Source of the DNA: an uncultured Candidatus Saccharibacteria bacterium
Lineage (GTDB): Bacteria; Patescibacteriota; Doudnabacteria; UBA920; O2-02-FULL-48-8
Assembly: GCA_964605735.1 (NCBI GenBank)
Contig: CAZSDS010000001.1
Span: forward strand, 573,864-637,863
Direction: 5' to 3'
Length of the DNA stretch: 64,000 nucleotides
Below, piece after piece: positions 28,789 through 61,063 of this stretch. A program made the position numbers and the translations under genes. The notes beneath the pieces were generated by a model. The model saw only the letters and a list, made by a program, of their open reading frames with translations, did no database searches and was not told where the DNA came from. Every line of letters begins with the position of its first letter. Position 1 is the first letter of the stretch.

Positions 28789-29763
28789 TTAGATTGCTAA
28801 TTTCTCAACCTCCACTGTTTCCTTTTCTATCCTGATAAAACCGGCTATTCTTAATACTTTAAATATCGCCCAGCTTAAGAGTAATACAACCCAATTAAAG
28901 ACAAAAGCAAAGGTGCGCATCAGTGCCAGAACCAGGACCGTGAAGAACAACGGGAAAAAATCCTCATACCTCCCCAAGCCTTCCCGCAGTCTTTGCGTCG
29001 CGACCTCGGTTAGAGCCACTCTCAGAGTGACATTGTCGTCCGCGTCCACGCCGAACTGCTCTGCAAAATTCTGCCTGATCTGGTCAAGGAGCTCTCTTTG
29101 CTGGCTGGCGGAAACCTGATTGAATTCCGGATACTGCTGTTCAGCCTGCTTTCTGAAGAATTCGCTCATTCGTTGACTGAGATTGTATTGGGAGCGGTCT
29201 TGCGCCAGCAGTGGGACGCCGCTCACTGCCGTCTCGCCCAATTTTCTGTAGTACTGATCGCGGTCGCGGTTAAAGTCTTCGCTGACACTGGAATAAACCA
29301 CGAATCCCAACAGAATCAAGAACGCATATGTGATGATTATCTGGCTGTTGCCAAGCGTTCGCCTGATGGAAAAGTTCAACTGGTTCGTTTCCTCCCCCTG
29401 CACGCGTCCCTGGAAAAACAAATTTAACAGGAAGAATATTACCCCGCCGATAAAAACGTAAATGTCCCTCGGCATGATCACTAAATATGTAATCAGCCCG
29501 ATGGCGTTGAAGATGAAAAAGGTGAATTTATCCGGCCTGGTTAAGGCAAAGATGCTGACCACCGCCACCCAGACTGCAGAAACCCCGGCGGTGTAAGCCC
29601 AGAAACTGGGATGCCTGCCGCCGAACATGGATTCGCTCAACATCCACCAGTTTAAAACCAGCAGAGCAGAAGACAACAACCCCAAACTAATTTGCTTGAA
29701 ATGCTTTCTGGCTTCAGATCTGTTCGCCTGCGCCTGCCTAATGCTCTCGCCGATTTGTTCCAT
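28789..29763 (-). CDS. Hypothetical polytopic membrane protein inserted between dnaK and dnaJ
   Basis: About 324 aa from the internal ATG at 29763. The track ORF to 29874 would overlap the upstream gene by 95 nt, so the start is ambiguous. It has at least four TM helices and a Q-rich soluble segment. I recognise no family. Confidence 0.5.
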
Positions 29764-29779
29764 ATTTGTTTTATGAAGG

Positions 29780-30085
29780 TTAAGATTGGGTTTTAAAGCC
29801 GAAGTCCGATTTTGACTGCGACTCACCTTCATTAATTGTACCAAATTGTTGCTCGTAGCGGCCGAGATTTTCATTCAGTGCCGCCAGGATGCGCTTGAAG
29901 TGCCCTGGACTGACAATCACCCTTGAGCCAACAATCCCCTGCTGGCCCACAACGTTCATGAAGTCAAAAATGAACTCTTCTTTGGTATGTATGACCTGCA
30001 TCAGGTTTGAATAGAAACCTTGAAGCTTGTCATCATTAATCTTGATTTGGATCTGCTGGCCCTGGTTTGGTGGTTGTTGTGACAT
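29780..30085 (-). CDS. DUF3467-like small protein
   Basis: 101 aa. FYSNLMQVIHTKEEFIFDFMNV...SRVIVSPGHFKRILAALNENLGRYE matches the DUF3467 pattern as I recall it (ysNl..i.hs..EF.lDF...sRii.sP.haKrll.aL.eNi..YE). Confidence 0.55.
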   Translation of the reverse strand: MSQQPPNQGQQIQIKINDDKLQGFYSNLMQVIHTKEEFIFDFMNVVGQQGIVGSRVIVSPGHFKRILAALNENLGRYEQQFGTINEGESQSKSDFGFKTQS

Positions 30086-30107: not shown

Positions 30108-31985
30108 TTACTCTTTTTTATTTTTTTCTGTGAATTCGGCATCAACAGGTCCGTCTTCTTTGTTTCCTGAACTGGAGTTGCCGGACTTGTCAGCGCCTGG
30201 TTGTGGATTTGATGACTGGTTTTGTTGATACATGGCCGCTCCCACTTTCTGTACAGCATTAGAGAGCTCATCCATTGCTTTCTTGATTGCCTCGACATCA
30301 TCCTTATCCTTAACTTCCTTCAGGGCTGTAATCTTGTCTTCCACCGCTTTCTTGTCATCCGCATTAGCCTTATCTCCCGCATCTTTCAGGGTGCGTTCAG
30401 AAACAGAAATCATGGTATCTGCCTGGTTGCGCATTTCAATGGTCTCCTTGCGCTTGCGGTCCTCCTCAGCATGAGCCTCCGCTTCCTTCTTCATGCGCTC
30501 AATTTCATCTTTGGAAAGGTTTGAAGAACCGGTAATGGTAATGTCTTGAGATTTTCCGGTTGCCTTGTCTTTGGCCGTTACCTTCAAAATACCGCTGGCA
30601 TCAATGTCAAAAGTCACTTCAACTTGCGGTACGCCACGCGGGGCTGGCGGAATGCCATCCAAATGAAATCTTCCCAGAGACTTGTTGTCATGAACCATCG
30701 GACGCTCGCCCTGGACTACGTGAATTTCCACGGAAGTCTGGTTGTCAGCGGCGGTTGAGAACACCTGAGACCTGGAGGTGGGAATTGTGGTGTTGCGTTC
30801 AATCAACGGAGTTGCCACTCCGCCCAAAGTCTCCAATCCAAGCGTCAAAGGGGTAACGTCCAAAAGCAGAATATCCTTCCCTGCGGCATCCCCGGACAAA
30901 ACTCCGGCCTGCACTGCAGCGCCCTTAGCCACGGCTTCCATAGGGTCAATGCCGCGCTCCACCTGCTTGCCAACATAATTTTCCACGAATTTCTGGACTA
31001 CAGGCATGCGGGTCGGACCGCCAATCAAAATAATCCGGTCAATGTCCTGGGGTGTCAGTTTGGCGTCGTTGAGGGCCTGTTCAACCGGGTGTTTCATCCG
31101 ATCTATGATAGGTTTGACCAATTCCTCAAGCTTGGCTCGGGTCAATTTCAGCTCTAAAGTTTTGGAACCGCCGGCTGGATCCGGAGCAATAAACGGCAAG
31201 ATAATGTCGGTTTCGAAAACTGTTGAAAGTTCAATTTTAGCCTTCTCAACTGCTTCGCGGACGCGGTTCATTGCCATTGGATCTGAAGCCAGATCAATTC
31301 CGGTCTTTGATTTGAAATCAGCAATAACGTAATCAATCAAAGCCTGGTCCATGTCTTTGCCGCCCAGCTGTGTGTCGCCTGAAGTTGCCTTAACTTCGAA
31401 TGTCGCCTTACCTCCCTCTTCCGCAAACTCCATGATAGTCACATCCAGCGTTCCGCCGCCTAGGTCGAACACCAAAATCTTCTGTTCCTTGCCGGCCTTA
31501 TCCAAACCGTAGGCGAAAGCCGCAGCTGTTGGCTCGTTGATTACGCGAACCACTTCCAAGCCTGCAATTTCTCCTGCGTTTTTAGTGGCCAAACGCTGAG
31601 AGTCATCAAAATATGCCGGCACGGTAATGACAGCCTTAGTCACGGGTTCGCCGATAAAAGCCTCTGCGTCCTTTTTAATTTTCTGCAGGATGAAAGCTGA
31701 AATCTGTTCTGGGCTGTATTCCTTACCATTGAGTTTAAACCTATGGTTTGTGCCCATTTTCCTTTTTGCTTCGAACACTGTCCCATCCGGATTTGTCACG
31801 GCCTGGCGCCTGGCAGGCTCACCAACCAGCAACTGCCCCTCTTTTGTAAATGCAACGTATGACGGGAACGCTTTACCGGCTACGGTCATACCTTCCGCAG
31901 AAGGGATTATAACCGGCTTGCCGCCTTCCATCACTGACGCTGCCGAGTTGGAAGTACCCAAATCAATTCCGATAATTTTTGGCAT
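30108..31985 (-). CDS. dnaK: Chaperone DnaK (Hsp70)
   Basis: 625 aa. [18 protein letters not shown] and the other Hsp70 signatures are present, along with an acidic C-terminal tail. Confidence 0.97.
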
Positions 31986-32043
31986 AACTATTTCCTTTAG
32001 TGCTTAATACTGATAAAATTAACCCAACCAATAAGGAGGTGCG

Positions 32044-32235
32044 ATGCGCAAATCGTTTGCTAAAATCGCCAAGTTCCTTTTTCTGTTTGTAAGTGCAGTA
32101 GCTGTTTTGTTTTTGCTCGTGATCTCCCCTTGCTACCGCCTGCTGAATGCGTACCTTACGCGGAAGCTGCGCAGGAGCCAGGCCAACCAACGACCAATAA
32201 ACCAAGTAGTCGCAAGCTCGCCTCGCCGCCCGTGA
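32044..32235 (+). CDS. Small hydrophobic/basic protein (63 aa) transcribed divergently from dnaK inside the heat-shock locus
   Basis: AAGGAGG lies 5 nt before the ATG. An extended -10 (TGaTAAAAT) is upstream. The stop codon sits inside an intrinsic terminator hairpin. The N-terminus is a TM helix and the C-terminus is Arg/Lys-rich. Confidence 0.45.
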   Translation: MRKSFAKIAKFLFLFVSAVAVLFLLVISPCYRLLNAYLTRKLRRSQANQRPINQVVASSPRRP

Positions 32236-32271
32236 AATTTACTGATGCGTTTTTCACGGGCTTTTTGTTTT
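32229..32271 (+). terminator. Rho-independent terminator (plus strand) between the sORF and the hsp20 3' end
   Basis: Hairpin cccgtgaaatttactgatgcgtttttcacggg followed by ctttttgtttt. Confidence 0.65.
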
Positions 32272-32686
32272 ATCCCTTAACCTCAATTTCAACTTTGCGA
32301 GGCTTGACCTTTTCGCTTTTTGGCATGGTAACCTTCAGAACGCCGCGTTCACAAACGGCTGAGATTCCTTCAGCGTCAACTTCCGTAGGAAGGGCAATGC
32401 TTCGGGCGAAACTTCCACGTCTGACTTCCTTGCGGTAGTAATCGCGGTTCTTGTCTTCAGTCACCTGCTCATCCCCGCCTTTGATGTGCAACACATTGTT
32501 CTCAATTTCCACGTTTATTTTCTTTGGATCAAGACCTGGAATGCTAATCTCAGCAACGACCTCATTATCAGTTTCATAAAGGTCGACTTCGGGTGACTGC
32601 ATTCGGCCGACTATCGGCATGAAGAAATCATCTTCAAAAAATCTGTCGAGTTCCCTGAAAGGGGTAAACCTAACTAAATTTGCCAT
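32270..32686 (-). CDS. Small heat shock protein (Hsp20/alpha-crystallin family)
   Basis: 138 aa with an alpha-crystallin domain (DLYETDNEVVAEISIPGLDPKKINVEIENNVLHIKG...GVLKVTMPK). Confidence 0.9.
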   Translation of the reverse strand: MANLVRFTPFRELDRFFEDDFFMPIVGRMQSPEVDLYETDNEVVAEISIPGLDPKKINVEIENNVLHIKGGDEQVTEDKNRDYYRKEVRRGSFARSIALPTEVDAEGISAVCERGVLKVTMPKSEKVKPRKVEIEVKG

Positions 32687-32742
32687 AGGTAATTCTCCTT
32701 AATTAATTATTCAAATTGCTTTGACTTTGCTGGCTAAGTGGG

Positions 32743-33294
32743 TCAGCCAACAATTTTATTTTTCCTGGCAACCACTACTTTTGCTGGGATGATGACCCTG
32801 CCATTGAGCGTAAAGCCCGGCTGAATCTCCTTAACAATCCCCTCACCGTCAGACTCCTCTTCCTGTACTGCCTCATGGAGATCAGGGTTGAATTTCTCGC
32901 CGACCGTTTTGATTTTGGCCAGGCCCAGCTCTTCCATTGTTTTCTCCAACTGAATTATTGTGGCCTTCAGGCCCAACAGCCAGTCCTTGTACTTGTCGTC
33001 ATTGGGCGCGTACTTTAAAACCTGCTCCAGGCTCTGCAACGAAGGCATTAACTTCATCACTGTCATTTCCTTGCTGTACTCAAGCAGCTCCCTGCTTTCC
33101 GTCTCTTTGCGGCGTTTGAAATTTTCAAAATCTGCGGCCGCCCGTTTCCAGTTGTTCAAATATTCTTCGTTCTCAGCCCTCAACTTATCCAGTTCACTCC
33201 GCAATTTGCCCTCTGTTTGCTCGCTTGCTTCATCGCCGTTTGAAACGGGACCGTCGTTTTGCGTCATTTCATCTTGCATATCTTCGTTAGACAT
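32743..33294 (-). CDS. grpE: Nucleotide exchange factor GrpE
   Basis: 183 aa. It has a coiled-coil N-terminus and the GrpE motif NWKRAAADFENFKRR. Confidence 0.9.
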   Translation of the reverse strand: MSNEDMQDEMTQNDGPVSNGDEASEQTEGKLRSELDKLRAENEEYLNNWKRAAADFENFKRRKETESRELLEYSKEMTVMKLMPSLQSLEQVLKYAPNDDKYKDWLLGLKATIIQLEKTMEELGLAKIKTVGEKFNPDLHEAVQEEESDGEGIVKEIQPGFTLNGRVIIPAKVVVARKNKIVG

Positions 33295-34030
33295 AAACCA
33301 CCATAATCAGAACAGCGGAACCGGAAATCAGTTTAGACAAAAACTCAAGAATAGACATATTTTTGGCATATGACATCCTCTTTGGCCCAACAATCCCAAT
33401 CAGCCCTTTCTTGCCGTTCTTTAACTTAATTTTAGAAACCATCAAACTCATGTTTTTGGGCATAGGCACCGGCACTTCAGTCCCTATGAATGTTTCTGTT
33501 TTGTACTCGGCATGCTTCATGAGCTTGTCGGCATGCTGGTCAATCTGGTCAAAAAGCTCTGCCACGCCCTGGATAGTCCTTGAATCGGACAAGTCAGGCT
33601 CAGTAATGATCCTGGAAAGTCCGGCGGCTGATGTGTCATGGGGCAGGAGCGTGAAAGCGGCTTGGCCTGAAACCTCGGCCACCAATTTTGAAATAGATCG
33701 GCCCAATTGCTCATGGGCAGCCTGCAATTTGACCAATTCCGCACGGAGCATTTTGCGCTCGCGCTCTGAAAGCTCAAACCTCTGCATCAGCTCATTAACG
33801 AAGAACCTGTAGCCTTTGTCTGTCGGCACCCTGCCCGCAGATTTGTGCGGCTGGGAGATATAACCCTTCTTTTCCAGAACAGCCATTTCATTTCTTATGG
33901 TTGCAGGGCTGACGCTGAGGTTATATTTTTCCACCAATTCTTGCGACCCAACAGGCTGTGCCGCTTCTGAGTATTCCTTAACGATAGCAGCCAGTATTTT
34001 CTGCTGTCTTATGTTTATTTCTCTTTCCAT
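33287..34030 (-). CDS. hrcA: Heat-inducible transcription repressor HrcA
   Basis: 247 aa. Its N-terminal winged HTH (RQQKILAAIVKEY...PVGSQEL...SPATIRNEMAVLEKKGYISQPH) is typical of HrcA. It overlaps grpE by 8 nt. Confidence 0.9.
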   Translation of the reverse strand: MEREINIRQQKILAAIVKEYSEAAQPVGSQELVEKYNLSVSPATIRNEMAVLEKKGYISQPHKSAGRVPTDKGYRFFVNELMQRFELSERERKMLRAELVKLQAAHEQLGRSISKLVAEVSGQAAFTLLPHDTSAAGLSRIITEPDLSDSRTIQGVAELFDQIDQHADKLMKHAEYKTETFIGTEVPVPMPKNMSLMVSKIKLKNGKKGLIGIVGPKRMSYAKNMSILEFLSKLISGSAVLIMVVYV

Positions 34031-34092
34031 TAGAGTTATACCTCATGCCCTCTGGGGCCATTATCTAACGCTAAATCCATTAGTTGCTTTAT

Positions 34093-34119
34093 TTAGCACT
34101 CGCTTCTTAAGAGTGCTAA
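34093..34119. promoter_or_regulatory. CIRCE operator 1 (TTAGCACTC-N9-GAGTGCTAA), a perfect consensus
   Basis: ttagcactcgcttcttaagagtgctaa lies just downstream of the predicted hrcA -10. Confidence 0.9.
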
Positions 34120-34138
34120 TCGCCTAATAATAATAAAT

Positions 34139-34165
34139 TTAGCACTCAACGTTGTCAAGTGCTAA
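34139..34165. promoter_or_regulatory. CIRCE operator 2 (TTAGCACTC-N9-aAGTGCTAA), with one mismatch
   Basis: ttagcactcaacgttgtcaagtgctaa. The embedded TTGACA on the minus strand is the likely hrcA -35 (TTGACA-N17-TATTAT). Confidence 0.8.
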
Positions 34166-34175
34166 AAGCAACAGA

Positions 34176-34207
34176 AAATAAAAAAACCGCAGGGGTGTTC
34201 CTGCGGC
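34176..34207 (-). terminator. Rho-independent terminator after the NUDIX gene
   Basis: On the minus strand, hairpin ccgcaggaacacccctgcgg followed by ttttttt. Confidence 0.7.
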
Positions 34208-34211
34208 GCAA

Positions 34212-34622
34212 TCAGTCCGAAAACATGCGGTTGCTTTGGATGGCTTGGAGGAGCTTCCGGTGCCCGAAAAAAAGCGGCTGTGGCAGATTTTCAAAGGAGA
34301 ACCACCCCCAGCCAGAAAAGCTGTCAGGTTCGGTCAGCTTGGGGTCTTTGTCCGTATTCGCAAAGAACGTCACCTGTATGTAATGTTCATTGCACTCTTG
34401 GCGCGGATCATTCGTAAGGTTTACGAAGACCAGATCCACAAGCTCAATCCCCGTCTCCTCACGCACTTCCCTGATGGCGCCTGAAACCAGGGATTCAAAA
34501 GCGTCAAGCTTGCCCCCGGGCAGGCACCATTCCCCCTGTCCAACACCTCCTTTCCTTTGACCAAAAAGGACTCTGCCGTTCTTGCGCACGACGACGTTGA
34601 CGCCGATTTTTGGTGCACTCAT
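34212..34622 (-). CDS. NUDIX hydrolase
   Basis: 136 aa with the Nudix box GKLDAFESLVSGAIREVREETGIE. Confidence 0.88.
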   Translation of the reverse strand: MSAPKIGVNVVVRKNGRVLFGQRKGGVGQGEWCLPGGKLDAFESLVSGAIREVREETGIELVDLVFVNLTNDPRQECNEHYIQVTFFANTDKDPKLTEPDSFSGWGWFSFENLPQPLFFGHRKLLQAIQSNRMFSD

Positions 34623-34803
34623 AGCAGTGAGTATACCAGAAAATCACCCTCCCTCCCACGGAACCAATAGCTATCAAGAAACACCAAAATATTCACAGCC
34701 TTTGCGCATATCCCCTCAAATGCATATTTTGCCTAAAACTTTTCGGCGTTCAGTTGTAGAATCAGCCAATGACACAAGACCACAGCTCGACTATCATTAG
34801 ACC

Positions 34804-35343
34804 ATGAAAATATCAAACCATCTCCCGCATTTCAGCGAACCCAACCTGCTGGTCGTTGCGGGAAAACAAGAAGCGGCTTTTTTCAAAGCCAGAAACGACC
34901 AAATACACCAGGTATATCATTTTAAAGTCGAAAAACCGGAGTACTCTGACAACGAGAGCAGAAGAGAAAGGAGAGGAAGTGGCGGCGCTTCAAGGTTCGG
35001 AGGGGGCTCGCCCTTTAAGCACAATGAAAACGAACTTTTGAGAGGCTTCTTAAAACAGCTAACAGACGAGGTCATTGCGCTTGATACAAGAAAAGAGGTC
35101 GACAAGCTGTACCTATTCTGCCCGACATACTTATCCAGCCCAATCGAGGACAACCTCCCGAATGACATACGGAACAAGATTGAATTTATTTTTTTCGGGA
35201 ATTACCTTAACCAACATCCGTTTGTTCTGTTGTCAAAGATCCAGGAATTTCAGAGAATAGAAAAAGACAAAAAAATCGTTGAACCTATAAAACTTGAGGC
35301 TCTTGAAATTTTAAAAAAGACCGGATCTGGGTTGAGTGCATAG
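34804..35343 (+). CDS. Hypothetical protein, possibly host-attachment/baeRF (eRF1-like) family
   Basis: 179 aa. The N-terminal LLVVAGKQEAAFFKA resembles the wVlvaDg.rARlf start of Host_attach-type proteins. This assignment is tentative. Confidence 0.35.
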   Translation: MKISNHLPHFSEPNLLVVAGKQEAAFFKARNDQIHQVYHFKVEKPEYSDNESRRERRGSGGASRFGGGSPFKHNENELLRGFLKQLTDEVIALDTRKEVDKLYLFCPTYLSSPIEDNLPNDIRNKIEFIFFGNYLNQHPFVLLSKIQEFQRIEKDKKIVEPIKLEALEILKKTGSGLSA

Positions 35344-35382
35344 TTTGCAATCTAAAACACCTGCAAAATAAAACGGCAAAAA

Positions 35383-35412
35383 TAAAACACCGCTCGTCAG
35401 CGGTGTTTTTAA
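35383..35412. terminator. Bidirectional rho-independent terminator
   Basis: Hairpin acaccgctcgtcagcggtgt flanked by A/T runs. Confidence 0.65.
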
Positions 35413-35422
35413 TTTCAAACGG

Positions 35423-35626
35423 TCATTTTTGCGAATTTTTTCTGTCTTTGCGCCATTTATCAAATGAATATGCCAGCAACCCCAGGCTTATCACTCCAAT
35501 GCCAATGACTTGGATATAGTCCATAGCCCCCAGATGCCCGTCATTATTGAATCCATGGGCTTTTGCAATGCTGGCGGATCCCAAAAATCCGGCCATGAAC
35601 AATAAAATGAATTTCGCTACCACCAT
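35423..35626 (-). CDS. Small membrane protein (67 aa, 2 TM helices)
   Basis: Hydrophobic ORF overlapping the upstream DoxX gene stop by 10 nt, which makes an operon likely. Confidence 0.45.
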   Translation of the reverse strand: MVVAKFILLFMAGFLGSASIAKAHGFNNDGHLGAMDYIQVIGIGVISLGLLAYSFDKWRKDRKNSQK

Positions 35627-36048
35627 CTTGATTTCACCTCATAGCCTCCAATAACAAGGCTGGCCGCGACCAGGACCAGATTCTTCATGACGAATTCGCC
35701 TTCAGTTGTTAAAAGCAAGAAACTTCCGTTGAAAAACAAATCAGGATTAAGCACCAGTGAAGCAAACGTTCCTAACATCTGCATCCAAAGCAGAGCCAGG
35801 ATAACGCGCAGGTAAAATTTCAAAAGCAAGCCTGCACCAATGACGATTTCCAACCAGCCAAGCGCTGGGATAAACTGTGGGTGGTCAATAAACGTGAAAG
35901 TTGATTCAATTAGTTCAACCACCGGGCTTTGTCCGATTACCTTCAGATAACCGAACCAAATAAAGACGATGGCAAGCGATATGCGGAGCACCGGAATCCC
36001 GTAACGGGACAGTGTGTGGATAAAAATTTCATCAAAAGTTCTAAACAT
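35617..36048 (-). CDS. DoxX-family membrane protein
   Basis: 143 aa with 4 TM helices and a DoxX-like pattern (LRISLAIVFIWFGYLK...). Confidence 0.6.
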   Translation of the reverse strand: MFRTFDEIFIHTLSRYGIPVLRISLAIVFIWFGYLKVIGQSPVVELIESTFTFIDHPQFIPALGWLEIVIGAGLLLKFYLRVILALLWMQMLGTFASLVLNPDLFFNGSFLLLTTEGEFVMKNLVLVAASLVIGGYEVKSRWW

Positions 36049-36134
36049 ATGTAAATTTTAGCATTAAAAAACTTTTCCCTGAAATCAGCAAACAAAAAAA
36101 GCGGAATATCCGCTTTTATCTTTTGCGCTGGAAT

Positions 36135-38957
36135 TTATTTCAGCATCTTCTTTAAGTATTGGCCAGTATAGCTGCGTTTAACCTTAGCCACTTCTTCTGG
36201 CGTGCCTGCCGCCACAATCTCCCCACCTTTGTTTCCGCCTTCCGGACCCAAATCAATAATCCAGTCAGCGCTTTTAATGATGTCGAGGTTGTGCTCGATA
36301 ACCAAAACAGTGTTACCCTTCTCCACCAGCTTATTCAAAACGCCGAGCAGGCGCTTCACGTCATCAAAGTGCAAGCCAGTGGTAGGCTCATCCAGGATGT
36401 AAAGCGTGCGGCCAGTTGACGAGCGGGACAATTCAGTGGCCAGCTTGATGCGCTGGGCTTCACCGCCGGACAAAGTCGTGGCTTGCTGGCCCAAATGCAT
36501 GTAACCCAAGCCCACCAAAGACAATGTTTCCAGTTTGCGGGCAATCATTGGCACGGATCGGAAGAATATATGCGCCTCATCCACAGTCATTTCCAGAATC
36601 TCAGAAATGGTTTTACCTTTGTAGTGGATAGCCAAAGCTTCTTTGTTGTAGCGTTTGCCCTTACACTCTTCACAAACAACGTACACATCAGGCAGGAAGT
36701 GCATTTCTATCTTAATCACGCCATCTCCGCCGCAAACCTCACAGCGTCCACCCTTGACGTTAAAGGAGAATCGGCCGGCTTTGTAACCGCGCATCTTGGC
36801 TTCCGGAGTCGCGGCGAACAAATCTCGGATATATGTAAACACTCCAGTGTAAGTGGCAGGGTTTGATCTAGGAGTACGGCCAATCGGCGACTGATCAATC
36901 GCAATGACTTTATCAATGTTTTCAATGCCCAGGATTTTCTTGTGCTCTCCCGGAGCCTCCTTGGCATTGTAAAAATAGGAAGACAGGGACTTGGCCAGGA
37001 TATCGTTCATTAACGTGGATTTACCTGAACCTGAAACGCCGGTCAGACAAACAAATTTACCCAAAGGTATATCCACGTCCACATTCTGCAGGTTGTTTTC
37101 TTTTGCGCCGACTATGCGCAGGGTTTTGCCATTCCCCTTTTTGCGCGTTTTAGGCACGGCAATTTCTTCCCGGCCGGATAAATATTTTCCGGTCATGGAA
37201 TTTTTATCTTTGGCGATCTGCGCTGGCGTGCCTTCAGCCACCAGTTCTCCGCCGTGCTTGCCTGCGCCCGGCCCGATATCAATCACCCAGTCTGCGGCTT
37301 CAATGGTTTCCTGGTCATGTTCAACGACAATCACGGTATTGCCCAAATCGCGCAGATGGCGAAGGGTTTTCAGCAAACGGTCATTGTCTCTTTGGTGCAG
37401 ACCAATGGAAGGCTCGTCCAAAATATACAGCACCCCGGTCAGACCTGAGCCTATTTGAGTGGCCAAACGGATACGCTGAGCCTCCCCGCCGGACAAAGTG
37501 TCCGCGGAACGGTCCAGAGTTAAATAATTTAAACCAACGTCCTGTAAGAACTGCAGTCTTGCGCAGATTTCCTTCAAAATCTGATGCGCGATTTTCATGT
37601 CTTTTTCTGACAAAGTCTTGGGAAGCGCGCTGGCAAACTTGAAGCTTTCGTCGATATCAGTATTGGCGACGTCTACGATTGATTTGCCTTGAATAGTCAC
37701 AGCCAAGAATTCCGGCTTCAATCTTTTACCCTTGCAGGTTGGACAGGTTTTTACGCGCATGTACTGCTCAATTTCTGACCGCATATAATCTGAGTCAGTT
37801 TCCTTGTACTTGCGGTTGAGGTTTGGGATCACTCCTTCAAAAGTCGCGTATCGTTCATACCCGCCTTCATCCTGGATCCTGACCTTCTGGTCCCCTGTTC
37901 CGTAAAGGATAACATCCAAAAATTTTTTCGGCAGGTCACGGACTTGCGCGTTGAGGGAAAAACCATATTCCTCAGCCAAAGCAGACAGCACGCGGCCGTA
38001 CCAGGACAGCCGTGAAGTGGTTTTGCTCCAAGGACGGATGGCGCCTTCGGCTAAGGTGAGTTTGGGATTTGGAATAACCAGATCAGGATCAACTTCCAAG
38101 CGGGTGCCCAGACCAGTACAGTCAGGGCAAGCGCCATGCGGCGAGTTAAATGAAAAATTTCGAGGGTTAAGTTCAGGCAAATTCATGTGCCCGTCCGGAC
38201 AGGCAAAATTTGAAGAGAGCAAAATCTCTTCTTTTTCGTTTTTCTGGACCAAAACTGTGTCATTCCCCAGATCAAGCGCGGTTTCCAAAGAATCAGCCAC
38301 CCGAGCCCGGTCACCAGCATCAAGGGAGATGCGGTCAACCACGACTTCAATGGTGTGCTTTTTCTTTTTATCGAGGGTCAGATTCAGCGCTTCGTTCAAA
38401 TCCATAATCGTACCATCCACGCGCACGCGCTGGTAACCGGACTTTTTAACCTCCTCAAGCAAGTGCCGGTGTTCCCCTTTTTGGTCTCGGATCATGGGGG
38501 CCATTATGATAATCTTGGTGGCTTCCGGCCAACTGACAATCTGGTCCACCATTTGGGTGACGCTCTGGCCGGAAATCCTTTTGCCGCAAACAGCACAATG
38601 CGGTTCCCCAACTCTGGCAAAAAGCAAACGCAGGTAATCGTAGATTTCCGTGACAGTCCCCACTGTTGAGCGCGGATTATGTGAAGCTGATTTTTGGTCA
38701 ATTGAAATTGCCGGCGACAAACCTTCAATCTTGTCCACGTCAGGCTTATCCATTAACCCCAAAAATTGCCTTGCGTAAGCTGAGAGAGATTCCACATAAC
38801 GGCGCTGGCCTTCGGCGTAAATGGTGTCAAAAGCCAAAGAGGATTTTCCGCTGCCGGACAAACCCGTGACAACCACCAGCTTATTACGCGGTATATCAAT
38901 GTTTAGATTTTTTAAATTATGGACGCGAGCGCCGCGGACAATGATTTTATCAGCCAT
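36135..38957 (-). CDS. uvrA: Excinuclease ABC subunit A
   Basis: 940 aa. It has two ABC ATPase modules ([14 protein letters not shown] and [13 protein letters not shown]), zinc-finger CxxC pairs and LSGGE signature motifs. Confidence 0.97.
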
Positions 38958-39200
38958 TTTTTTCTCTCTAGTCCTAACAAGAGCCAGGATCGTTAATTAC
39001 TCTAAGGGGTTACTTTTGGAAAGTGAAAATAGATAAGCAGATACACGCCGTTCAACCCCGGAGAGCGACGGCTATAACCGCCAGAGGCGGCCTGCCAACT
39101 GGCAGGAAAGCCAGAATAGTATATATAAAAAAAAGACCCATGTCCAGATATGGAGCTAATGGGTGCGAGGTTTTGTGCGGCACCTGCATGCCAGACGTTT

Positions 39201-39536
39201 TCAGGGGTAATAGTGTTCGCGAACTTTTGACCGCAAACAATACGTAATCAGATATGAACTTGAAACGACAAGCCCGGCAGGAACCGACCTGGCCAGTGCA
39301 ACCAACCAATCCTGACCCGTACGGAGGCCGATCATAAAGGACAGGACAACGAGGAAGGTTTGGCACACAAAAACAAAGAAAAACAGTGCAACCAACCTCA
39401 TCCAGTACCACTGCCGGCGTGTGAATTGGTACTGCAGGATTTTGAGGGTGATCCCGGTCAGCAAGGCCAGCATTATCACATCTGACACAAGCAACCAAAT
39501 CGGATTATTTGAAAGAACACCTGTAACGCCAAACAT
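39201..39536 (-). CDS. Hypothetical membrane protein (3 TM helices)
   Basis: 111 aa. I prefer it over the overlapping GC-rich frame 39052..39498 because of its clean TM helices and its ordinary composition. Confidence 0.45.
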   Translation of the reverse strand: MFGVTGVLSNNPIWLLVSDVIMLALLTGITLKILQYQFTRRQWYWMRLVALFFFVFVCQTFLVVLSFMIGLRTGQDWLVALARSVPAGLVVSSSYLITYCLRSKVREHYYP

Positions 39537-39615
39537 ATGTACCTCCTTGGAACTAGCGAAAAAAATCGCCCAGGCAAGGGCCCAGGCGACCAGAGTACAG
39601 TAGTTTTGAAACGTC

Positions 39616-40116
39616 TTACAGCCGCACGCTCACAGGATTGTGGGCGGGTTTGGGAGAAACCCAGGAGCTGAAGGTTTTCCGTTCCAGGAACCGGGTCCGG
39701 CGGCGCGACCGCTTCTTCCGTTTGGTGACACACTGGCGAACTGCTTCGCGCCGCAATTTCTCGCGGAGCCTGAGCAACTCGGTAGGACTGTGATCATGCC
39801 CCCATCTGCGCCCGACAGGAAAAACAGTGCTCGTCCACCGGCCGCTGATTTCGTTGCGGCGGCAAATGACAATGTGACGCAGATTCACGCCATTGTTAAG
39901 TGGAACCGTACGTCCCACCGCCTCCAACAGAGTAACAAGGCCAAGCCGCGCCAGCCTGACTTGGTAGAGCTTGCAATGGCCTCCAAGTTTGAAATGCACA
40001 TGGACTTCGCACTCGGAGGGCAATACATCTCCCCATTTCAGAGCTGAAATACGACCCCAGCGAACCTCGTCTCCCCGCTTCTTGAAGTGAACAGCCAACT
40101 GTCCGCGACGTTTCAT
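39616..40116 (-). CDS. Arg-rich GC-rich ORF, tentatively a degenerate DUF559-like endonuclease-fold protein
   Basis: 166 aa. ECEVHVHFKLGGH and NLRHIVICRRNEI loosely match the DUF559 core. It lies at the left end of the GC-rich island. An antisense ORF (39640..40047) is equally long, so the coding strand is uncertain. Confidence 0.3.
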   Translation of the reverse strand: MKRRGQLAVHFKKRGDEVRWGRISALKWGDVLPSECEVHVHFKLGGHCKLYQVRLARLGLVTLLEAVGRTVPLNNGVNLRHIVICRRNEISGRWTSTVFPVGRRWGHDHSPTELLRLREKLRREAVRQCVTKRKKRSRRRTRFLERKTFSSWVSPKPAHNPVSVRL

Positions 40117-40239
40117 TCAACCCCCTACGGTTTGTGGGAACGAACTGTGATAACCCAAGCATAAAGAAAAAATGGATTTCGTGCAAATAAAAAACGGGGC
40201 TCCACAGAGGAGACCCCGCAAAACTTACTTGAACAAAAC

Positions 40240-41151
40240 TTACCTGAGGCGGCGAAGCCTTGTTGCCCCGCCGATCAGCGCCACCCCGAACAACAGCAGC
40301 GATGCTGGTTCCGGCACGCTCTTCCCCTGGATGACCCGGTCATGTCCGCCATAGTACTCGCCCGGCTGGAGCACGAGCGGCGTCCTGAGGTTGAAGACCA
40401 CCCGCCCGATCGGGTCGGTTGACCCGTCCTGGAAAACGCGATTCACACCGGTGTAGGAGGTGGGATTGTCCCCGCCCCAGACAATGGTGGAAAACACGTC
40501 GCCGTTGAAGCTCCCGGTGTTGACCGGCAGACATCCGACGTTCGGCTCCGTGCAGTTGCCCGTAACCGACCAGATGTTGAACCGGTAGCTCAACTCCGGG
40601 TTGTTCGGGTCAGTGATCGTGTTGTAATAGCCGTCGTAGTTGAAGTACCCGATGATCTGGTCGATGACCGTAACCTCGGTGATCTTGAAGTAACTGGCGT
40701 ACATCCAATCCCAGTTGTTGGCCTCGGCGTAGTTCTGGTAGAGCCCAGGTGTACTGGCGTTCGCCGTACCCTGCGCCTGCGCGTTGTAGAAATCGCCGTA
40801 GGTGCCGTCCTCGATGCCGTTGTTGTCGTAAACGATATTGCCGTCATTGAGGAAGGTCATGGCCTGACCGGCAGTTTCCGGAAACCATGTGTCCCGGTGC
40901 CAGATCTGCCCGGCGTAGCCCCAGGTTGTGGGATCATCCGTGATGAAAGCCATGTTGCCGCCGCTGGCGCGCGTTCCGTTTGGCTGGTTGCCGGTCGGGA
41001 ACTTGCCGCCAGTGATGGCGTAATGGTAATCGTAGATATCCGCCTGGTTGTCTGCCCCGCCGTTGAACGGAAAAATCGGACCAGCCACGGCCGCGGCCGG
41101 AACGAACGCAACCATGCACGCCAGAGCCAGGGCAGTTTTCTTGAGACTCAT
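40240..41151 (-). CDS. Secreted PEP-CTERM domain protein (exosortase substrate)
   Basis: About 303 aa from ATGATG at 41151-41154. AAGGAG is just upstream. The N-terminal signal peptide is MSLKKTALALACMVAFVPAAAVAG. The C-terminus VPEPASLLLFGVALIGGATRLRRLR is the canonical PEP motif plus TM helix plus Arg cluster. The body is Gly/Asn/Tyr-rich. Local GC is clearly above background. The 519-aa track ORF is a spurious N-terminal extension that overlaps the next gene. Confidence 0.8.
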   Translation of the reverse strand: MSLKKTALALACMVAFVPAAAVAGPIFPFNGGADNQADIYDYHYAITGGKFPTGNQPNGTRASGGNMAFITDDPTTWGYAGQIWHRDTWFPETAGQAMTFLNDGNIVYDNNGIEDGTYGDFYNAQAQGTANASTPGLYQNYAEANNWDWMYASYFKITEVTVIDQIIGYFNYDGYYNTITDPNNPELSYRFNIWSVTGNCTEPNVGCLPVNTGSFNGDVFSTIVWGGDNPTSYTGVNRVFQDGSTDPIGRVVFNLRTPLVLQPGEYYGGHDRVIQGKSVPEPASLLLFGVALIGGATRLRRLR

Positions 41152-41305
41152 CATCGCTCCTTGGAAAAAATTGTCACAACACTTTTTTCGCACTGCTTTG
41201 TTGTTCTTACTCACACCTCCTTTATTTGTATTGTGGAATGTACAATAGAAAAAGATACTAAATTTCTGAGGTTTTGTCAACGCCGGCAAAGCAATAAACA
41301 AGGCC

Positions 41306-41341
41306 AAAGAAAAAAGCGGAGCCCCAAGAAGGAACTCCGCC
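41306..41341 (-). terminator. Rho-independent terminator after PEP-CTERM gene 2
   Basis: On the minus strand, hairpin gcggagttccttcttggggctccgc followed by ttttttctttgg. Confidence 0.65.
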
Positions 41342-41381
41342 CAAAAACTGGCAGATGATATTGTGCGGACGAACCGGTGAA

Positions 41382-42107
41382 CTAGCGGCGGCGCCGGCGA
41401 TACGCCCGTGCCCCGCCGATCAGCGCCATCCCGACCAGCAACACGGACGCTGGTTCGGGCACGTTGCCTGTGGTATCCACCATGATTGCGGACCGTCCCA
41501 GCTCCTGCTGACCGTTGTACGCGACCAGGGCAAACGTGTACTGCCCAGGTGCGTTCGGATCCCAGGATCCGGGAGGTGCCACTCCGCCAAAGAGCCCGGG
41601 GAAACCCCAGTCCGTTGACAGAAACCCAAAGCCGAGGTTGTTGGAGCTTTCGGCCAGAGCCGGGAGCGCCACCCCGCCCAGCGAGGTATAGCCATGGTTT
41701 GAGGAATCCGTCCCCGAACCCGGATCGAAATCGTAGTACAGCCGAAGTTCGGTCACGGGTGCAGTGCCGGTGTACGAGTAGAAGGCGTTGAAGTTCCACG
41801 TGGCGTAGGTTGGATTGCCGTTGAGGATGTCACCGCCGGCCTGAGCGTAAAAAATTCCCGCGCCGTTGTCGGTCACCGCCAGGTTTGCGAAGCGCTGTGC
41901 CGCACTCATCCCGAGGATGATCTCGCCGCCGCCGAAGTCGACCGTGGTGATCGCCACGCTTGTGTTGGGAATTCCGCTGCCGCCAAACGTTGCCTGGGGC
42001 AGCGCACCGAACGTATCGAACATCGGAACGATCGGTGAGGCGTGAGCCGTGTCGGCCATGGCAAAGATAGCCAAGGCCACGAGGGTCGAAAGCACACTTC
42101 TTTTCAT
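41382..42107 (-). CDS. Secreted PEP-CTERM domain protein (exosortase substrate), paralogous in architecture to 40240..41151
   Basis: About 241 aa from ATG 42107. AGGAGG is 6 nt upstream. The signal peptide is MKRSVLSTLVALAIFAMADTAHA. The C-terminus is VPEPASVLLVGMALIGGARAYRRRRR. The gene is GC-rich. Confidence 0.8.
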   Translation of the reverse strand: MKRSVLSTLVALAIFAMADTAHASPIVPMFDTFGALPQATFGGSGIPNTSVAITTVDFGGGEIILGMSAAQRFANLAVTDNGAGIFYAQAGGDILNGNPTYATWNFNAFYSYTGTAPVTELRLYYDFDPGSGTDSSNHGYTSLGGVALPALAESSNNLGFGFLSTDWGFPGLFGGVAPPGSWDPNAPGQYTFALVAYNGQQELGRSAIMVDTTGNVPEPASVLLVGMALIGGARAYRRRRR

Positions 42108-42203
42108 CTGCATCCTCCTGCGGTTGTAGAAACTGCCTGAAACACTGTGAACACTTTGCATAGCATACTCTTTTTGGTCCCGTTTGTCAACGCTTTAAGG
42201 GCT

Positions 42204-42230
42204 TTGACTCGACGCACTTTCAGGTATAAT
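42204..42230 (+). promoter_or_regulatory. Sigma70-like promoter for uvrC (TTGACT-N15-TATAAT)
   Basis: The -10 ends 9 nt before the uvrC ATG and there is no SD, which implies a leaderless or near-leaderless mRNA. Confidence 0.5.
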
Positions 42231-42239
42231 ACCGTATAT

Positions 42240-44051
42240 ATGAGCAAGCTTTTGTCGCAAAAAATTTCTGAACTTCCATCAAAGCCGGGTGTTTACATCT
42301 TTAAGGATGAAACAGGCGGCGCTTTGTACGTTGGCAAGGCGGTGAAGCTTAAAAACCGCGTTTCGTCATACTTCAAAAAAGGCGCCGGTGATGGATCTGC
42401 CCGCATCCAAAGCATGATTTCAAAAATCAGGGACCTTGATTACGTGGTCACTGACAATGAAGTCGAAAGCCTGGTTTTGGAAAACAACTTCATCAAACAA
42501 CTCCACCCAAAATACAACGTCTTGATGCGCGACGACAAAAATTATTTGTTCGTCAAAATAAATTTGCAGGATGAAATCCCAACCATTAGCTACGAACGAA
42601 AAATTACCGACAAAAAAGCCAGGTACTTCGGACCATACACCAGCGGCTATGAAGTTAAGCAAACCCTGCGCATGCTCCGGAACATCTTTCCTTATTGCGC
42701 CAATTCTAAAGTCGGAACCAAACCTTGCTTTTATTACCACCTCCAAAAATGTCCCGGCGTCTGTATCGGCAAAATTTCACTGGACGAGTACCGCGAGACA
42801 ATCAACAAAATAATGAGGTTTTTGGAGGGTCGGCAAACAGAAGTTCTCAAAGAGCTTCAAGGGCAGATGAAGTTTCTGGCCAGGCACAGGCAGTTTGAAA
42901 AGGCGGCCCGGACGCGCGACCAGATCTTTGCGCTTAACCGGGTAATGGAACGGCAAAAACTAGTTTACGCAAAGAAAATCGATCAGGATGTTTTCAGCCT
43001 GCACATGGAACCAACAGTTGCTTCATTGAATTTGTTCCGCATTCGCGAAGGCAAACTGATCGGAAAGGAAAATTTTATTATTGAAAACACCAGGCAGACT
43101 TCAGACCAGGAAATTCTCGAAAGCTTCCTTCCTACCTACTACATGGATGCCACCAGCCTGCCGCAGGAAATCCTGGTTCCGCGCGAAATCAATGTTTCGG
43201 ATCTGATTCCCCTGCTGGCGGAAAGAGCGCGCGAACTGAATCATAGGAAAAAAATCAGATTTTTCACCCCATCGAGCGGAACAAAAAAAGAATTAATTAA
43301 GATGGGAGAAAACAACGCCAAGCAGTACCTGGAAGCGCAGTCGGATAAAACCCTGTTGGAGGAAGCGCGCCTGCTTGCGGCCCTGAAAGAATTGCAAAGG
43401 GTGCTTGGACTGGAGCAAATGCCCGGAAGAATGGAATGTTTTGACATTTCCAACATACAAGGGACGAATGCCGTTGGCTCTATGGTTGTTTTCGATTTCG
43501 CACGACCAAAGAAAGATGAGTACCGCAAGTTCAAGATCAGAAAAAAACGAACTCCGGATGACTTCGCCATGATGAAAGAAATGCTGGAACGCCGTTTCCA
43601 AAGATCCTTGTCCAGTGACGACGCAAAAAGATGGCCCTTGCCGGATCTTGTTATCATAGACGGCGGAAAAGGACAGCTCTCCACTGCAGTCACAGTCCTG
43701 CAAAGCCATGGATTGAATATACCTGTCATGGGCCTGGCAAAAAGAATCGAAGAAATATTTTTACCGGGCAAACCTGATCCCATTCTTTTGCCCCACAACT
43801 CCATTGCGCTTTACTTGCTCCAGCGCATCCGGGATGAAGCCCATCGCTTTGCCATTACTTATCACCGCAAACTAAGGTCAAAAGGAACGCTCTCTTCGGC
43901 ACTGGACCAAATCTCGGGAATCGGTCCGGCAAAAAAGAAAAGATTGCTTGAACGCTTCGGCTCCGTATCGCGTATGAGAGAATCCAGCCTGACGGAAATT
44001 GCTGAAATCGTCGGATCAAGACTGGCTGAAAAAATAAAGGCTTCCCTTTAG
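42240..44051 (+). CDS. uvrC: Excinuclease ABC subunit C
   Basis: About 603 aa from ATG 42240. It has an N-terminal GIY-YIG domain (PGVYIFKDETGGALYVGKAVKLKNRVSSY), a UvrBC-interaction region, an RNase H-like endonuclease domain and a C-terminal (HhH)2 domain. The 31-aa N-terminal extension in the track ORF is spurious. Confidence 0.95.
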   Translation: MSKLLSQKISELPSKPGVYIFKDETGGALYVGKAVKLKNRVSSYFKKGAGDGSARIQSMISKIRDLDYVVTDNEVESLVLENNFIKQLHPKYNVLMRDDKNYLFVKINLQDEIPTISYERKITDKKARYFGPYTSGYEVKQTLRMLRNIFPYCANSKVGTKPCFYYHLQKCPGVCIGKISLDEYRETINKIMRFLEGRQTEVLKELQGQMKFLARHRQFEKAARTRDQIFALNRVMERQKLVYAKKIDQDVFSLHMEPTVASLNLFRIREGKLIGKENFIIENTRQTSDQEILESFLPTYYMDATSLPQEILVPREINVSDLIPLLAERARELNHRKKIRFFTPSSGTKKELIKMGENNAKQYLEAQSDKTLLEEARLLAALKELQRVLGLEQMPGRMECFDISNIQGTNAVGSMVVFDFARPKKDEYRKFKIRKKRTPDDFAMMKEMLERRFQRSLSSDDAKRWPLPDLVIIDGGKGQLSTAVTVLQSHGLNIPVMGLAKRIEEIFLPGKPDPILLPHNSIALYLLQRIRDEAHRFAITYHRKLRSKGTLSSALDQISGIGPAKKKRLLERFGSVSRMRESSLTEIAEIVGSRLAEKIKASL

Positions 44052-44120
44052 GTCAACCTTGACTGAGGGAAGTCTTTTTTGTATAAAACAAAAAGCAAGA
44101 TCAAACTATTAGGAGGTTTG

Positions 44121-44576
44121 ATGCAAACACACGTTCACGAAGAAAGCGGAGATGTTGTCGAAGGATTGCAGCTCGCCCCGGGCGCAATCGTCCGACCGGG
44201 CGATGTATTCGCCGCCGCGGATGGCAACTGGAGGTTCTTGCCTTGCAGTTTCGTACTCGGCAACTCTCTGGTCAAATGGGTTCGGCCGCGTGGCGACCTG
44301 TCCCAATCCGCCCGGGAAGTCCTGCTCCTGCTCACGGACCGCGAAAAGCGCCCCAAGTTCATTCACGTTTTTCAGCACACGTTCGCGATCGCGTGCCATA
44401 ACGATTTCAACAGCATCGATTGGCCGCGAACCAAGTATCCGCTCATCCTCAACCCGGACACGCTCCGGGAACTGATCGATTACGGGTACATCGAACAGCA
44501 GCAGGTTTTCGGCAGTGTCTACGGCGTCACTGAACTCGGGCACCAGCGCGCCGCGCAGCTGCGTCAGCAGAACTGA
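44121..44576 (+). CDS. Hypothetical protein, GC-rich orphan (152 aa)
   Basis: AGGAGG lies 5 nt before the ATG at 44121. A terminator follows. Composition is visibly GC-richer than in neighbouring genes. I recognise no family. Confidence 0.5.
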   Translation: MQTHVHEESGDVVEGLQLAPGAIVRPGDVFAAADGNWRFLPCSFVLGNSLVKWVRPRGDLSQSAREVLLLLTDREKRPKFIHVFQHTFAIACHNDFNSIDWPRTKYPLILNPDTLRELIDYGYIEQQQVFGSVYGVTELGHQRAAQLRQQN

Positions 44577-44589
44577 ACATGCCTCTTTC

Positions 44590-44625
44590 GGCGGGACTTC
44601 TCCAGAAGTCCCGCCTTTTCTATTT
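44590..44625 (+). terminator. Rho-independent terminator
   Basis: Hairpin ggcgggacttctccagaagtcccgcc followed by ttttctattt. Confidence 0.75.
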
Positions 44626-58873: not shown

Positions 58874-59560
58874 TTAGGTCAGGTTTTGGGTTGCTTCTTT
58901 AACCCACTCCACAAGGCTGGCCATAAACTCGGGATTGTTGTCGAAAATTTGCGTGCCGTGCCCGCCAGTTCTGAAAATCTGGATGGATTTTTTCTGGCTT
59001 GAGCAGGCATTGTACAAAGTTTCCGTCTGGGCGGCGTTCCCCTCCACTCTGTCATCATCCAAAGCCGAAACAAAATACACCGGCAAAACCTCAGGCAATG
59101 AAGTGGTAAGCCGGCCAGCCTCAATCCCGTAATAATTGAGCCCTGGAGATAGGAATATGGCAAACGCCGCAGGGTTAGCAGCCGCATATTGCATGGATAA
59201 ATTCGCCCCTATGCTCGCCCCCACAAACCCAATCGCCATGTCAGGATTCTGCTTGAGCAAGTAGTCAACTGACGCCTTCAGGTCAAAAATTGATTTTTGG
59301 TGCTGTTCCGCGGAAAAGTTTTGGTAATCCCCGCCTGAAGATTCGCCATGTCCCCGCAGGTCTATTGCCAGCGTGTGAAATCCGGCCCGTGACAACTGCT
59401 CGGCAAATTTCGCGTAAGATTCCTTTGTTGCCGGCATCATATGCACCAAAACCACCCCAAAAGGCAAAGAGCCGGGTATGTAAGTCCCGGCTATTTCGAA
59501 ATCATCAACCGTATTCAGTTTCACATCAAGACTTTTCATAACCGTACCCCAATCTGCCAC
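58874..59560 (-). CDS. Alpha/beta hydrolase (dienelactone hydrolase / prolyl oligopeptidase-like)
   Basis: 228 aa. It has a HG oxyanion motif and the nucleophile elbow GASIGA. Confidence 0.7.
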   Translation of the reverse strand: MADWGTVMKSLDVKLNTVDDFEIAGTYIPGSLPFGVVLVHMMPATKESYAKFAEQLSRAGFHTLAIDLRGHGESSGGDYQNFSAEQHQKSIFDLKASVDYLLKQNPDMAIGFVGASIGANLSMQYAAANPAAFAIFLSPGLNYYGIEAGRLTTSLPEVLPVYFVSALDDDRVEGNAAQTETLYNACSSQKKSIQIFRTGGHGTQIFDNNPEFMASLVEWVKEATQNLT

Positions 59561-59568
59561 TGTTAAGT

Positions 59569-61053: not shown

Positions 61054-61063
61054 ATTACACCTG

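Follow-up and report, generated by a model that had tools for sequence, protein, structure and literature searches.

The two genes considered here, PEPA and PEPB, lie between uvrA and uvrC in a 64-kb stretch of contig CAZSDS010000001.1 (64,000 nt, positions 573,864 to 637,863 of the forward strand, assembly GCA_964605735.1; hereafter the window, with positions counted from its first letter), and their closest described counterparts are the PEP-CTERM proteins sorted by exosortase (EpsH/Xrt), an enzyme with at least 8 transmembrane (TM) helices and Cys-Arg-His residues. By the original rule for this system (EpsH, XrtA; Haft et al. 2006, PMC1569441), PEP-CTERM proteins are tied to an outer membrane and to extracellular polysaccharide (EPS) loci, their presence correlated perfectly with EpsH in complete genomes, and their genes show a single-gene layout with large upstream spacers. 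The median was eight tagged proteins per genome, and genomes with one or two copies were set aside as possibly degenerate (PMC1569441). PEPA and PEPB share with these proteins the tripartite tag, a signal peptide, an organization as single-gene units after a large spacer, a Gly/Asn/Thr-rich composition and ectodomains without known families. They differ in their host, a member of the Candidate Phyla Radiation (CPR) expected to lack an outer membrane, in that neither an exosortase nor an EPS locus was seen in the 64-kb window, and in number, since two tagged genes were seen in 64 kb compared with that median per genome. Moreover, PEPA and PEPB have sigma-70-type promoters, and no sigma-54 site, as in the control known from Proteobacteria, was found near them.

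Archaeosortase A reportedly processes PGF-CTERM proteins (motif, helix, basic tail) in single-membrane archaeal cells, and such sorting therefore does not require an outer membrane. The tag of PEPA and PEPB has the same three parts, again in a cell thought to have a single membrane, but it carries PEP and not PGF, the PGF-CTERM system is archaeal, and no archaeosortase-like gene was detected in the sequence searched here. With LPXTG proteins and their sortases, PEPA and PEPB have in common the succession of signal peptide, ectodomain, motif, helix and basic tail, as well as an expected surface display without outer membrane; they have PEP in place of LPXTG, and sortases belong to an unrelated enzyme class. 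Among named PEP-CTERM families, those of the flocculation-associated PepA, EDSAP-1 and others (NF033554, NF041538, NF038125) match PEPA and PEPB in the tag only (E 1e-4 to 1e-2). As the scores are about 20 bits against cut-offs of 80-125 and the ectodomains are unrelated, the two proteins are not members of these families. Finally, soil Doudnabacteria laterally acquired a cyo operon (PMC8407418). This too is a gain of genes from non-CPR bacteria, and on one related contig described below (L095), a cyo-like operon is located at a distance of 4 kb from the PEP-CTERM gene; the cyo operon differs in that it encodes respiratory enzymes and not surface proteins, without sorting tag.

A regular-expression scan found exactly two PEP-CTERM genes in the window. 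Both are on the minus strand, like every gene in the uvrA-uvrC interval, and their features are as follows (aa, amino acids; HMM, hidden Markov model).

42162..42190, minus strand: sigma-70-like promoter of PEPA, TTGACA-17-TATGCT, 10/12 consensus
41382..42107, minus strand: PEPA, putatively secreted PEP-CTERM protein of 241 aa, AGGAGG 6 nt upstream of ATG 42107
42039..42107, minus strand: predicted signal peptide of PEPA, MKRSVLSTLVALAIFAMADTAHA, followed by SP; site between AHA and S
41385..41462, minus strand: PEP-CTERM tail of PEPA, VPEPASVLLVGMALIGGARAYRRRRR; HMM match residues 218-242, modelled as one helix
41314..41342, minus strand: intrinsic-terminator-like hairpin after PEPA, 12-bp stem, then T run
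41252..41280, minus strand: sigma-70-like promoter of PEPB, TTGACA-17-TATCTT, 10/12 consensus, inside a 227-nt spacer of 42% GC
40240..41151, minus strand: PEPB, putatively secreted PEP-CTERM protein of 303 aa, identical to public protein P0001
41083..41151, minus strand: predicted signal peptide of PEPB, MSLKKTALALACMVAFVPAAAVA, followed by GP; site between AVA and G
40243..40320, minus strand: PEP-CTERM tail of PEPB, VPEPASLLLFGVALIGGATRLRRLR; HMM match residues 279-303
40199..40224, minus strand: intrinsic-terminator-like hairpin after PEPB, 11-bp stem, then T run

An earlier note, made from the letters of the window, had named two PEP-CTERM proteins here, and HMM searches bore it out for both. 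Against the curated cut-offs (gathering score of 20.7 bits for PF07589, 16 bits for TIGR02595), PEPA scored 24.9 and 18.3 bits and PEPB 27.0 and 21.5 bits, respectively, and both tails consist of motif, helix and basic cluster. Each gene has one alternative start: ATG 42113 would extend PEPA to 243 aa, while the public gene call (P0121) also begins at 42107, and ATG 41154 would give a PEPB of 304 aa. The N-termini, as read from the sequence, are K/R-rich, followed by a hydrophobic core and an AxA-type site, and thus have the makeup of a signal peptide in both proteins. Homologues of PEPB begin at the same place as its signal peptide, and the N-terminus of PEPA was modelled by AlphaFold as a low-confidence helix. 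For the rest, the models comprise an Ig-like beta-sandwich followed by a C-terminal helix for PEPA (pLDDT 89.9) and a beta-sandwich followed by a C-terminal helix for PEPB (pLDDT 90.8). No enzyme fold was indicated in either, and an adhesive or matrix-binding role may be envisaged. With a promoter and a terminator of its own, each gene forms a single-gene unit, the layout described for PEP-CTERM genes; the PEPA promoter stands back to back with the upstream region of uvrC. The long leaders of the island genes gave no Rfam match (riboswitch or other known RNA) at E <= 1. We also observed that the tail-coding DNA of the two genes (40264-40318 and 41409-41463) is 85% identical over 55 nt, the rest of the genes being unrelated.

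The insertion becomes apparent when the two flanking genes are compared with those of related genomes.

36135..38957, minus strand: uvrA, core gene, 72-83% aa identity to Doudnabacteria metagenome-assembled genomes (MAGs)
42240..44051, plus strand: uvrC, core gene, oriented divergently from uvrA; the public gene call contains Pfam UvrC domains

The UvrA of the window is 83%, 78% and 72-73% identical to those of Candidatus Doudnabacteria and closely related Patescibacteria MAGs, and the gene order dnaK-grpE-hrcA ... uvrA / uvrC-SBP-RNase J-like is kept in related loci. By UvrA identity and conserved synteny the host is therefore assigned to Candidatus Doudnabacteria, a CPR lineage, in agreement with the reduced genome that the earlier note had supposed. 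The contig on which the identical PEPB protein is recorded measures 797,183 bp, a usual length for a CPR genome. CPR cells, to our knowledge, have no outer membrane. In 8/8 related loci, the divergently oriented uvrC and uvrA adjoin each other with a spacer of 0.15-1.1 kb that has no PEP-CTERM gene; in the window this spacer measures 3.3 kb and thus holds an insertion. The longer spacers of the relatives contain unrelated small lineage-specific open reading frames (ORFs), often membrane ORFs. By this comparison, the uvrC/uvrA spacer is a variable spot and the GC-rich block a lineage-specific addition.

Composition sets the block apart as well. Positions 39600-42150 have a GC content of 0.574 against a background of 0.471 ± 0.014 (2.5-kb windows, whole 64 kb). 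The earlier note had put these values in the low 60s and mid 40s per cent; the contrast stands, although its size does not, the low 60s fitting only the coding sequence (CDS) of PEPA (0.623), followed by PEPB (0.598) and the Arg-rich ORF at the uvrA side (0.573). The windowed GC and tetranucleotide comparison proposed there was made: the strongest outlier of all 64 kb is 39501-42000 (GC z 7.2, strand-symmetric tetranucleotide-distance z 11.7), with no other interval near it, and the island is accordingly foreign in composition. Third-codon-position GC (GC3) reaches 0.745 in PEPA and 0.806 in PEPB, compared with 0.524 ± 0.041 in 31 host genes, a difference of 5-7 standard deviations (SD). The spacers within the island, at 0.42-0.44 GC, are AT-richer than the host. 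Many ORFs overlap in different frames of the island, among them a 519-aa read-through ORF, and the long spurious ORFs remarked on earlier are indeed present.

We then looked at the source of the two genes. PEPB has 151 homologues at E <= 1e-3. Besides the identical entry, the closest share 66-73% aa identity, and those at about 50% belong to Vicinamibacterales, Sedimentisphaerales, Armatimonadota, Phycisphaeraceae and Rhodospirillales; more distant named homologues of the two families also come from Limisphaera and Burkholderiaceae. The contigs with the closest PEPB homologues (70-75% aa identity) have 64-68% GC and encode COX1/COX2, a molybdopterin oxidoreductase, MutL and CorA, hence they are not CPR. 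The gene alone aligns between these contigs and the island (74% nt identity). The closest PEPA relative, 77% identical in aa over residues 27-125, is a frameshifted gene call on contigs of 66% GC. A PEPA-like gene on contig L085 and PEPB-like genes on L082 and L100 are flanked by M29-aminopeptidase and ATP-grasp genes that are 77-80% nt identical, so that one slot in one lineage is occupied by a gene resembling either PEPA or PEPB. This provides strong evidence that both island genes derive from that high-GC lineage. GC3 of the nearest foreign homologues is 0.85-0.89 and that of the island genes only slightly lower, indicating little amelioration. The horizontal acquisition that the earlier note had listed among its alternatives is thus supported both by the empty locus of the eight relatives and by nearest homologues on GC-rich respiratory contigs. 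The PEPB promoter spacer had no exact match when metagenome contigs were scanned for it, and a protein-based scan of such contigs returned only one further donor-type contig. In PEPA-family members of Verrucomicrobia, VPDSG-CTERM replaces PEP-CTERM, and the tail thus normally matches the sorting enzyme of the host.

The arrangement was recovered independently of the assembly in question. Logan contig SRR7082976_971, a 36.9-kb product of another assembler, agrees with window positions 30240-44595 at 100% identity, through both junctions, at which no repeat able to cause a mis-join was found; it ends at 44595, inside the terminator at 44590-44615. In run SRR26389779, a core-genome contig is 99.0% identical to positions 58921-64000, and a 1.8-kb contig carries PEPA, spacer and PEPB at 97.6% nt identity without gaps. 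The pair differs between the two strains at 44 positions, 42 of them coding (34.5 synonymous and 7.5 non-synonymous changes). The resulting dN/dS is 0.10 for PEPA (binomial p 1.7e-3) and 0.05 for PEPB (p 9e-14), and both genes are therefore maintained by selection. In the 227-nt promoter spacer, 2/227 positions differ. As many as 18/44 strain differences fall within 130 nt of PEPB (40800-40930), i.e. ~14% divergence versus 1-2% elsewhere, a patch which suggests recombination with another allele.

The statement of the earlier note that no exosortase is encoded in the window was upheld. A Kyte-Doolittle scan retained 5 ORFs of at least 100 aa with at least 4 predicted TM segments, none of which has a Pfam match to the exosortase family; the two largest are also without such an NCBIfam match. 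Three of these candidates were ruled out by their identity, namely a DsbD/DoxX fusion of 856 aa, a P-type ATPase of 763 aa and a DoxX of 143 aa. A 361-aa six-TM protein adjoining dnaK has no family match. Similarly, no exosortase was found within ±10 kb of the PEP-CTERM genes of other Doudnabacteria-like contigs: the multi-TM ORFs on contigs L001, L004, L095 and L096 matched an Nramp transporter or, weakly, a DUF6-like family, or had no match. In the literature searched, we found no link of exosortase or PEP-CTERM to CPR taxa.

The premise of the earlier note that PEP-CTERM proteins are alien to such a host nevertheless needs revising, as four other Doudnabacteria-like contigs (L007, L098, L095 and L099) carry PEP-CTERM proteins of a different family; the unusual cell-surface system listed there as an alternative is accordingly still plausible. 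The protein on L007 came to light in a motif scan of all loci retrieved.

L007, 15896-16642, minus strand: PEP-CTERM protein of 248 aa, TIGR02595 23 bits, on a contig of 40% GC
L098, 192-962, plus strand: PEP-CTERM gene P0258
L098, 1296-1505, plus strand: PEP-CTERM mini ORF of 69 aa
L095 (GCA_016788665.1), 10001-10678, plus strand: PEP-CTERM gene P0259
L099, 4746-5498, plus strand: PEP-CTERM gene P0260, syntenic with L095

These genes are syntenic in pairs. In L007 and L098 they lie near uvrA: the L007 gene is downstream of uvrA and just upstream of pilM/N/O/B, and in L098, which has the uvrA/uvrC/SBP synteny, P0258 is directly downstream of uvrA beside the mini ORF. In L095 and L099 they lie between msrB and the 6PGD gene, and P0259 bears the NCBI name 'PEP-CTERM sorting domain-containing protein [Candidatus Doudnabacteria bacterium]'. 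Synteny within each pair argues for vertical inheritance, and some Doudnabacteria thus have PEP-CTERM proteins as an established trait that is apparently inherited. The PEP-CTERM genes of these four contigs have a GC content of 0.55-0.60 in genomes of 39-42% GC. When 9 PEP-CTERM members were aligned (down to about 53% identity), (V/I/T)PEP-x-T was invariant while the helix varied freely.

A sister clade with the same ectodomain (P0262, P0263, P0265, P0279) ends in a Cys-rich tail, PPTSKDQCKxGGW...FKNQGxCVS, and not in PEP-CTERM. One contig of this clade, L096 (recorded at up to 785 kb), has the gene ~7.4 kb from a sortase gene, so that a sortase, the enzyme of the LPXTG system, is encoded near a relative of the second family without the PEP-CTERM tail. 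In L095 (10729-11352, minus strand) and L099 (5549-6175, minus strand), a conserved soluble protein of 207-208 aa with Cys/His motifs is encoded convergently to the PEP-CTERM gene; the L095 copy has no NCBIfam match at E <= 0.01.

How would the two proteins work in this host? We lean, by a little, towards PEPA and PEPB being acquired, functional, Sec-exported surface proteins that are anchored by the helix of the tag without exosortase processing. A block of ~2.6 kb was inserted by horizontal transfer into the variable uvrC-uvrA spacer of a Doudnabacteria genome; its source was a high-GC, respiratory, non-CPR lineage with PEPA-like and PEPB-like genes in one chromosomal slot, and the two genes are kept as independent single-gene units, both under purifying selection. 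The insertion, the foreign origin, the tag, the intact and selected genes and their presence in two strains are borne out by the data above, while export, anchoring without exosortase cleavage and an adhesive role are inferred. The signal peptide would direct each protein through Sec and be cleaved by signal peptidase I (encoded at 6947-7645 of the window, where an LCP-family protein is also encoded), the beta-sandwich ectodomain would fold extracellularly and the PEP-CTERM tail, with its PEP motif, one hydrophobic helix and Arg cluster, would act as a stop-transfer anchor. As the host is expected to have no outer membrane, both proteins would be displayed directly on the cell surface and would probably serve adhesion or matrix/glycan binding toward a partner organism. 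Several points weigh against this scheme. The exosortase search reached 64 kb of a ~797-kb contig, the signal peptides and topology of PEPA and PEPB were judged by sequence reading alone, and the donor is known by contig GC and respiratory genes, not to phylum. As for a horizontally acquired island, an atypical composition, an empty syntenic site and distant homologues were found, but mobility hallmarks were not: except for the PEP-CTERM tag, the ORFs of the island have no Pfam/NCBIfam match, no tRNA is located at the island (the nearest are at 27.2 and 47.2 kb) and no direct repeats were detected flanking it. Finally, the invariant PEP-x-T of the second family suggests a recognition partner, because a plain membrane anchor should not need an invariant PEP motif.

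This last point is accommodated by a possibility that we take seriously while giving it less credence, namely that the same genes were acquired but that Doudnabacteria have a working PEP-CTERM sorting, in which an exosortase-family or other intramembrane enzyme encoded elsewhere in the genome would recognize the PEP motif and cleave the tail. The proteins would then be attached or released in a cell without outer membrane, as with archaeosortase A and PGF-CTERM. The recurrence of PEP-CTERM on four further contigs with pairwise synteny, the invariance of PEP-x-T in a nine-member clade whose helix diverges and whose sister clade has a Cys-rich tail, the way in which the PEPA-family tail tracks the sorting system of the host and the perfect correlation of PEP-CTERM with EpsH in complete genomes (PMC1569441) all favour such an enzyme, the invariant motif most of all. 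It is, however, at odds with the lack of any exosortase match in the window or fetched flanks, with the silence of the literature searched on exosortase in CPR, with the small size of CPR genomes and the one or two tagged proteins per locus, and with the outer membrane and EPS loci of the original rule (PMC1569441). Taken to its end, this alternative would give Doudnabacteria a genuine PEP-CTERM pathway with an exosortase-type or analogous enzyme, whose cargo would be in part vertically inherited and in part captured from neighbouring bacteria with an outer membrane, which may be their hosts; we put this forward tentatively.

The remaining explanations dispense with transfer, with the join or with function. 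PEPA and PEPB could be native, their composition following from Gly/Ala/Pro/Thr-rich proteins and codon preference. Since the PEP-CTERM genes of L007, L098, L095 and L099 are GC-rich though syntenic and probably vertically inherited, GC richness alone is indeed not proof of recent transfer in this lineage. Yet PEPA and PEPB are missing from the same locus in eight relatives, their sole near homologues occupy a conserved slot on contigs of 64-68% GC with respiratory genes, the wider families are distributed across phyla that have an outer membrane, the 240 matches listed including no further CPR bacterium, and amino-acid composition does not explain a GC3 so far above the host mean, which makes a native origin unlikely. 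A recently acquired neutral passenger, without function in the host and heading to decay, would agree with a GC3 still near donor level and little amelioration, with the adjacent orphan Arg-rich ORF of doubtful coding status and with the lack of a cognate exosortase in the window. This we judge still less probable, in view of two ORFs intact in strains that differ by 1-2.4% nt, of 34.5/42 synonymous coding changes (dN/dS 0.05-0.10), of canonical promoters, ribosome-binding sites and terminators and of a nearly invariant promoter spacer. Least credible is the assembly chimera raised by the earlier note (or a binning contamination), i.e. a high-GC fragment misjoined between uvrA and uvrC. Although the compositional contrast is sharp and the Logan contig ends at 44595, near a second GC-rich patch, a second assembler reproduced both junctions without a single difference and without a repeat that could explain a mis-join, and the sister strain, from a different run, has the same pair and spacer under purifying selection. 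In addition, the island differs from the flanks of the homologues in its AT-rich spacers with promoters of sigma-70 type, and the CDS alone aligns with high-GC contigs. A chimera is thus very unlikely.

Three further features lie between PEPB and uvrA.

39616..40116, minus strand: orphan Arg-rich ORF of 166 aa, GC 0.573, coding status uncertain
39564-39591: terminator-like hairpin after the Arg-rich ORF
39201..39536, minus strand: small membrane ORF of 111 aa, TM helices by eye, GC 0.48, strong AGGAGG upstream of ATG

The earlier note had called the Arg-rich ORF DUF559-like. This assignment (PF04480) was ruled out, as Pfam and NCBIfam gave no match at E <= 1; PHROG and PADLOC gave none either. 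Among 1.84 billion representative proteins, the ORF found itself and one match (E 6.7e-4) that corresponds to a short repeated motif, and just itself at E<1e-10. Its coding status is uncertain because its GC1/2/3 values are indistinguishable from those of an ORF on the opposite strand. The 111-aa ORF, located between the GC-rich block and uvrA, has no homologue in the 8 related loci and is probably outside the foreign block.

On the other side, uvrC appears to start at ATG 42240, or at 42252 according to the Logan gene call. In its upstream region (42195-42240), a TATAAT box ends ~8 nt before ATG 42240, and the uvrC mRNA may for this reason be leaderless or have a very short leader. Directly after uvrC, a second GC-rich insert (44079-44576, plus strand, GC 0.56) contains a 165-aa ORF without Pfam, PHROG or PADLOC match, followed by the terminator at 44590-44615; in the closest relative, L008, this site measures ~310 bp only.

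Elsewhere in the window, the 856-aa protein (22043-24613, minus strand) fuses DoxX-like and DsbD-type TM parts to a long His-rich extracytoplasmic C-terminal part, and its neighbours are a small cupredoxin-like ORF and a heavy-metal P-type ATPase (19333-21624). The 361-aa six-TM protein is encoded between dnaJ and dnaK (28789-29874, minus strand); L008 encodes a counterpart with ~32% identity, and in L001 an ORF with nine TM segments occupies that place. A 179-aa ORF (34804-35343, plus strand) matches bacterial eRF1-like (baeRF) families and the 'Host_attach' family, but only weakly and below threshold.

PEP-CTERM was defined for outer-membrane bacteria with EPS genes and exosortase, and the envelope of the present host falls outside that definition. 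In this CPR lineage, whose cells are believed to be bounded by a single membrane, the tagged proteins of the window and of four further contigs are nonetheless intact, and selection was demonstrated for the pair of the window. If no exosortase is present, the tag would here serve in nature as nothing more than a surface anchor, and the invariant PEP motif would need another explanation; if one is present, exosortase-type sorting would extend to CPR cells. Should the sorting pathway exist, the island would represent a fresh gain of cargo and the donor lineage a pointer to a partner organism. The clear donor signal, which points to one slot of a respiratory lineage with high GC, itself offers a lead to the organism that this episymbiont-like bacterium has as its partner or host. 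The interval between uvrC and uvrA stands out as a hotspot of gene gain in Doudnabacteria, and the recurrence of the tag in related Doudnabacteria hints at an unrecognized surface-protein route in the group.

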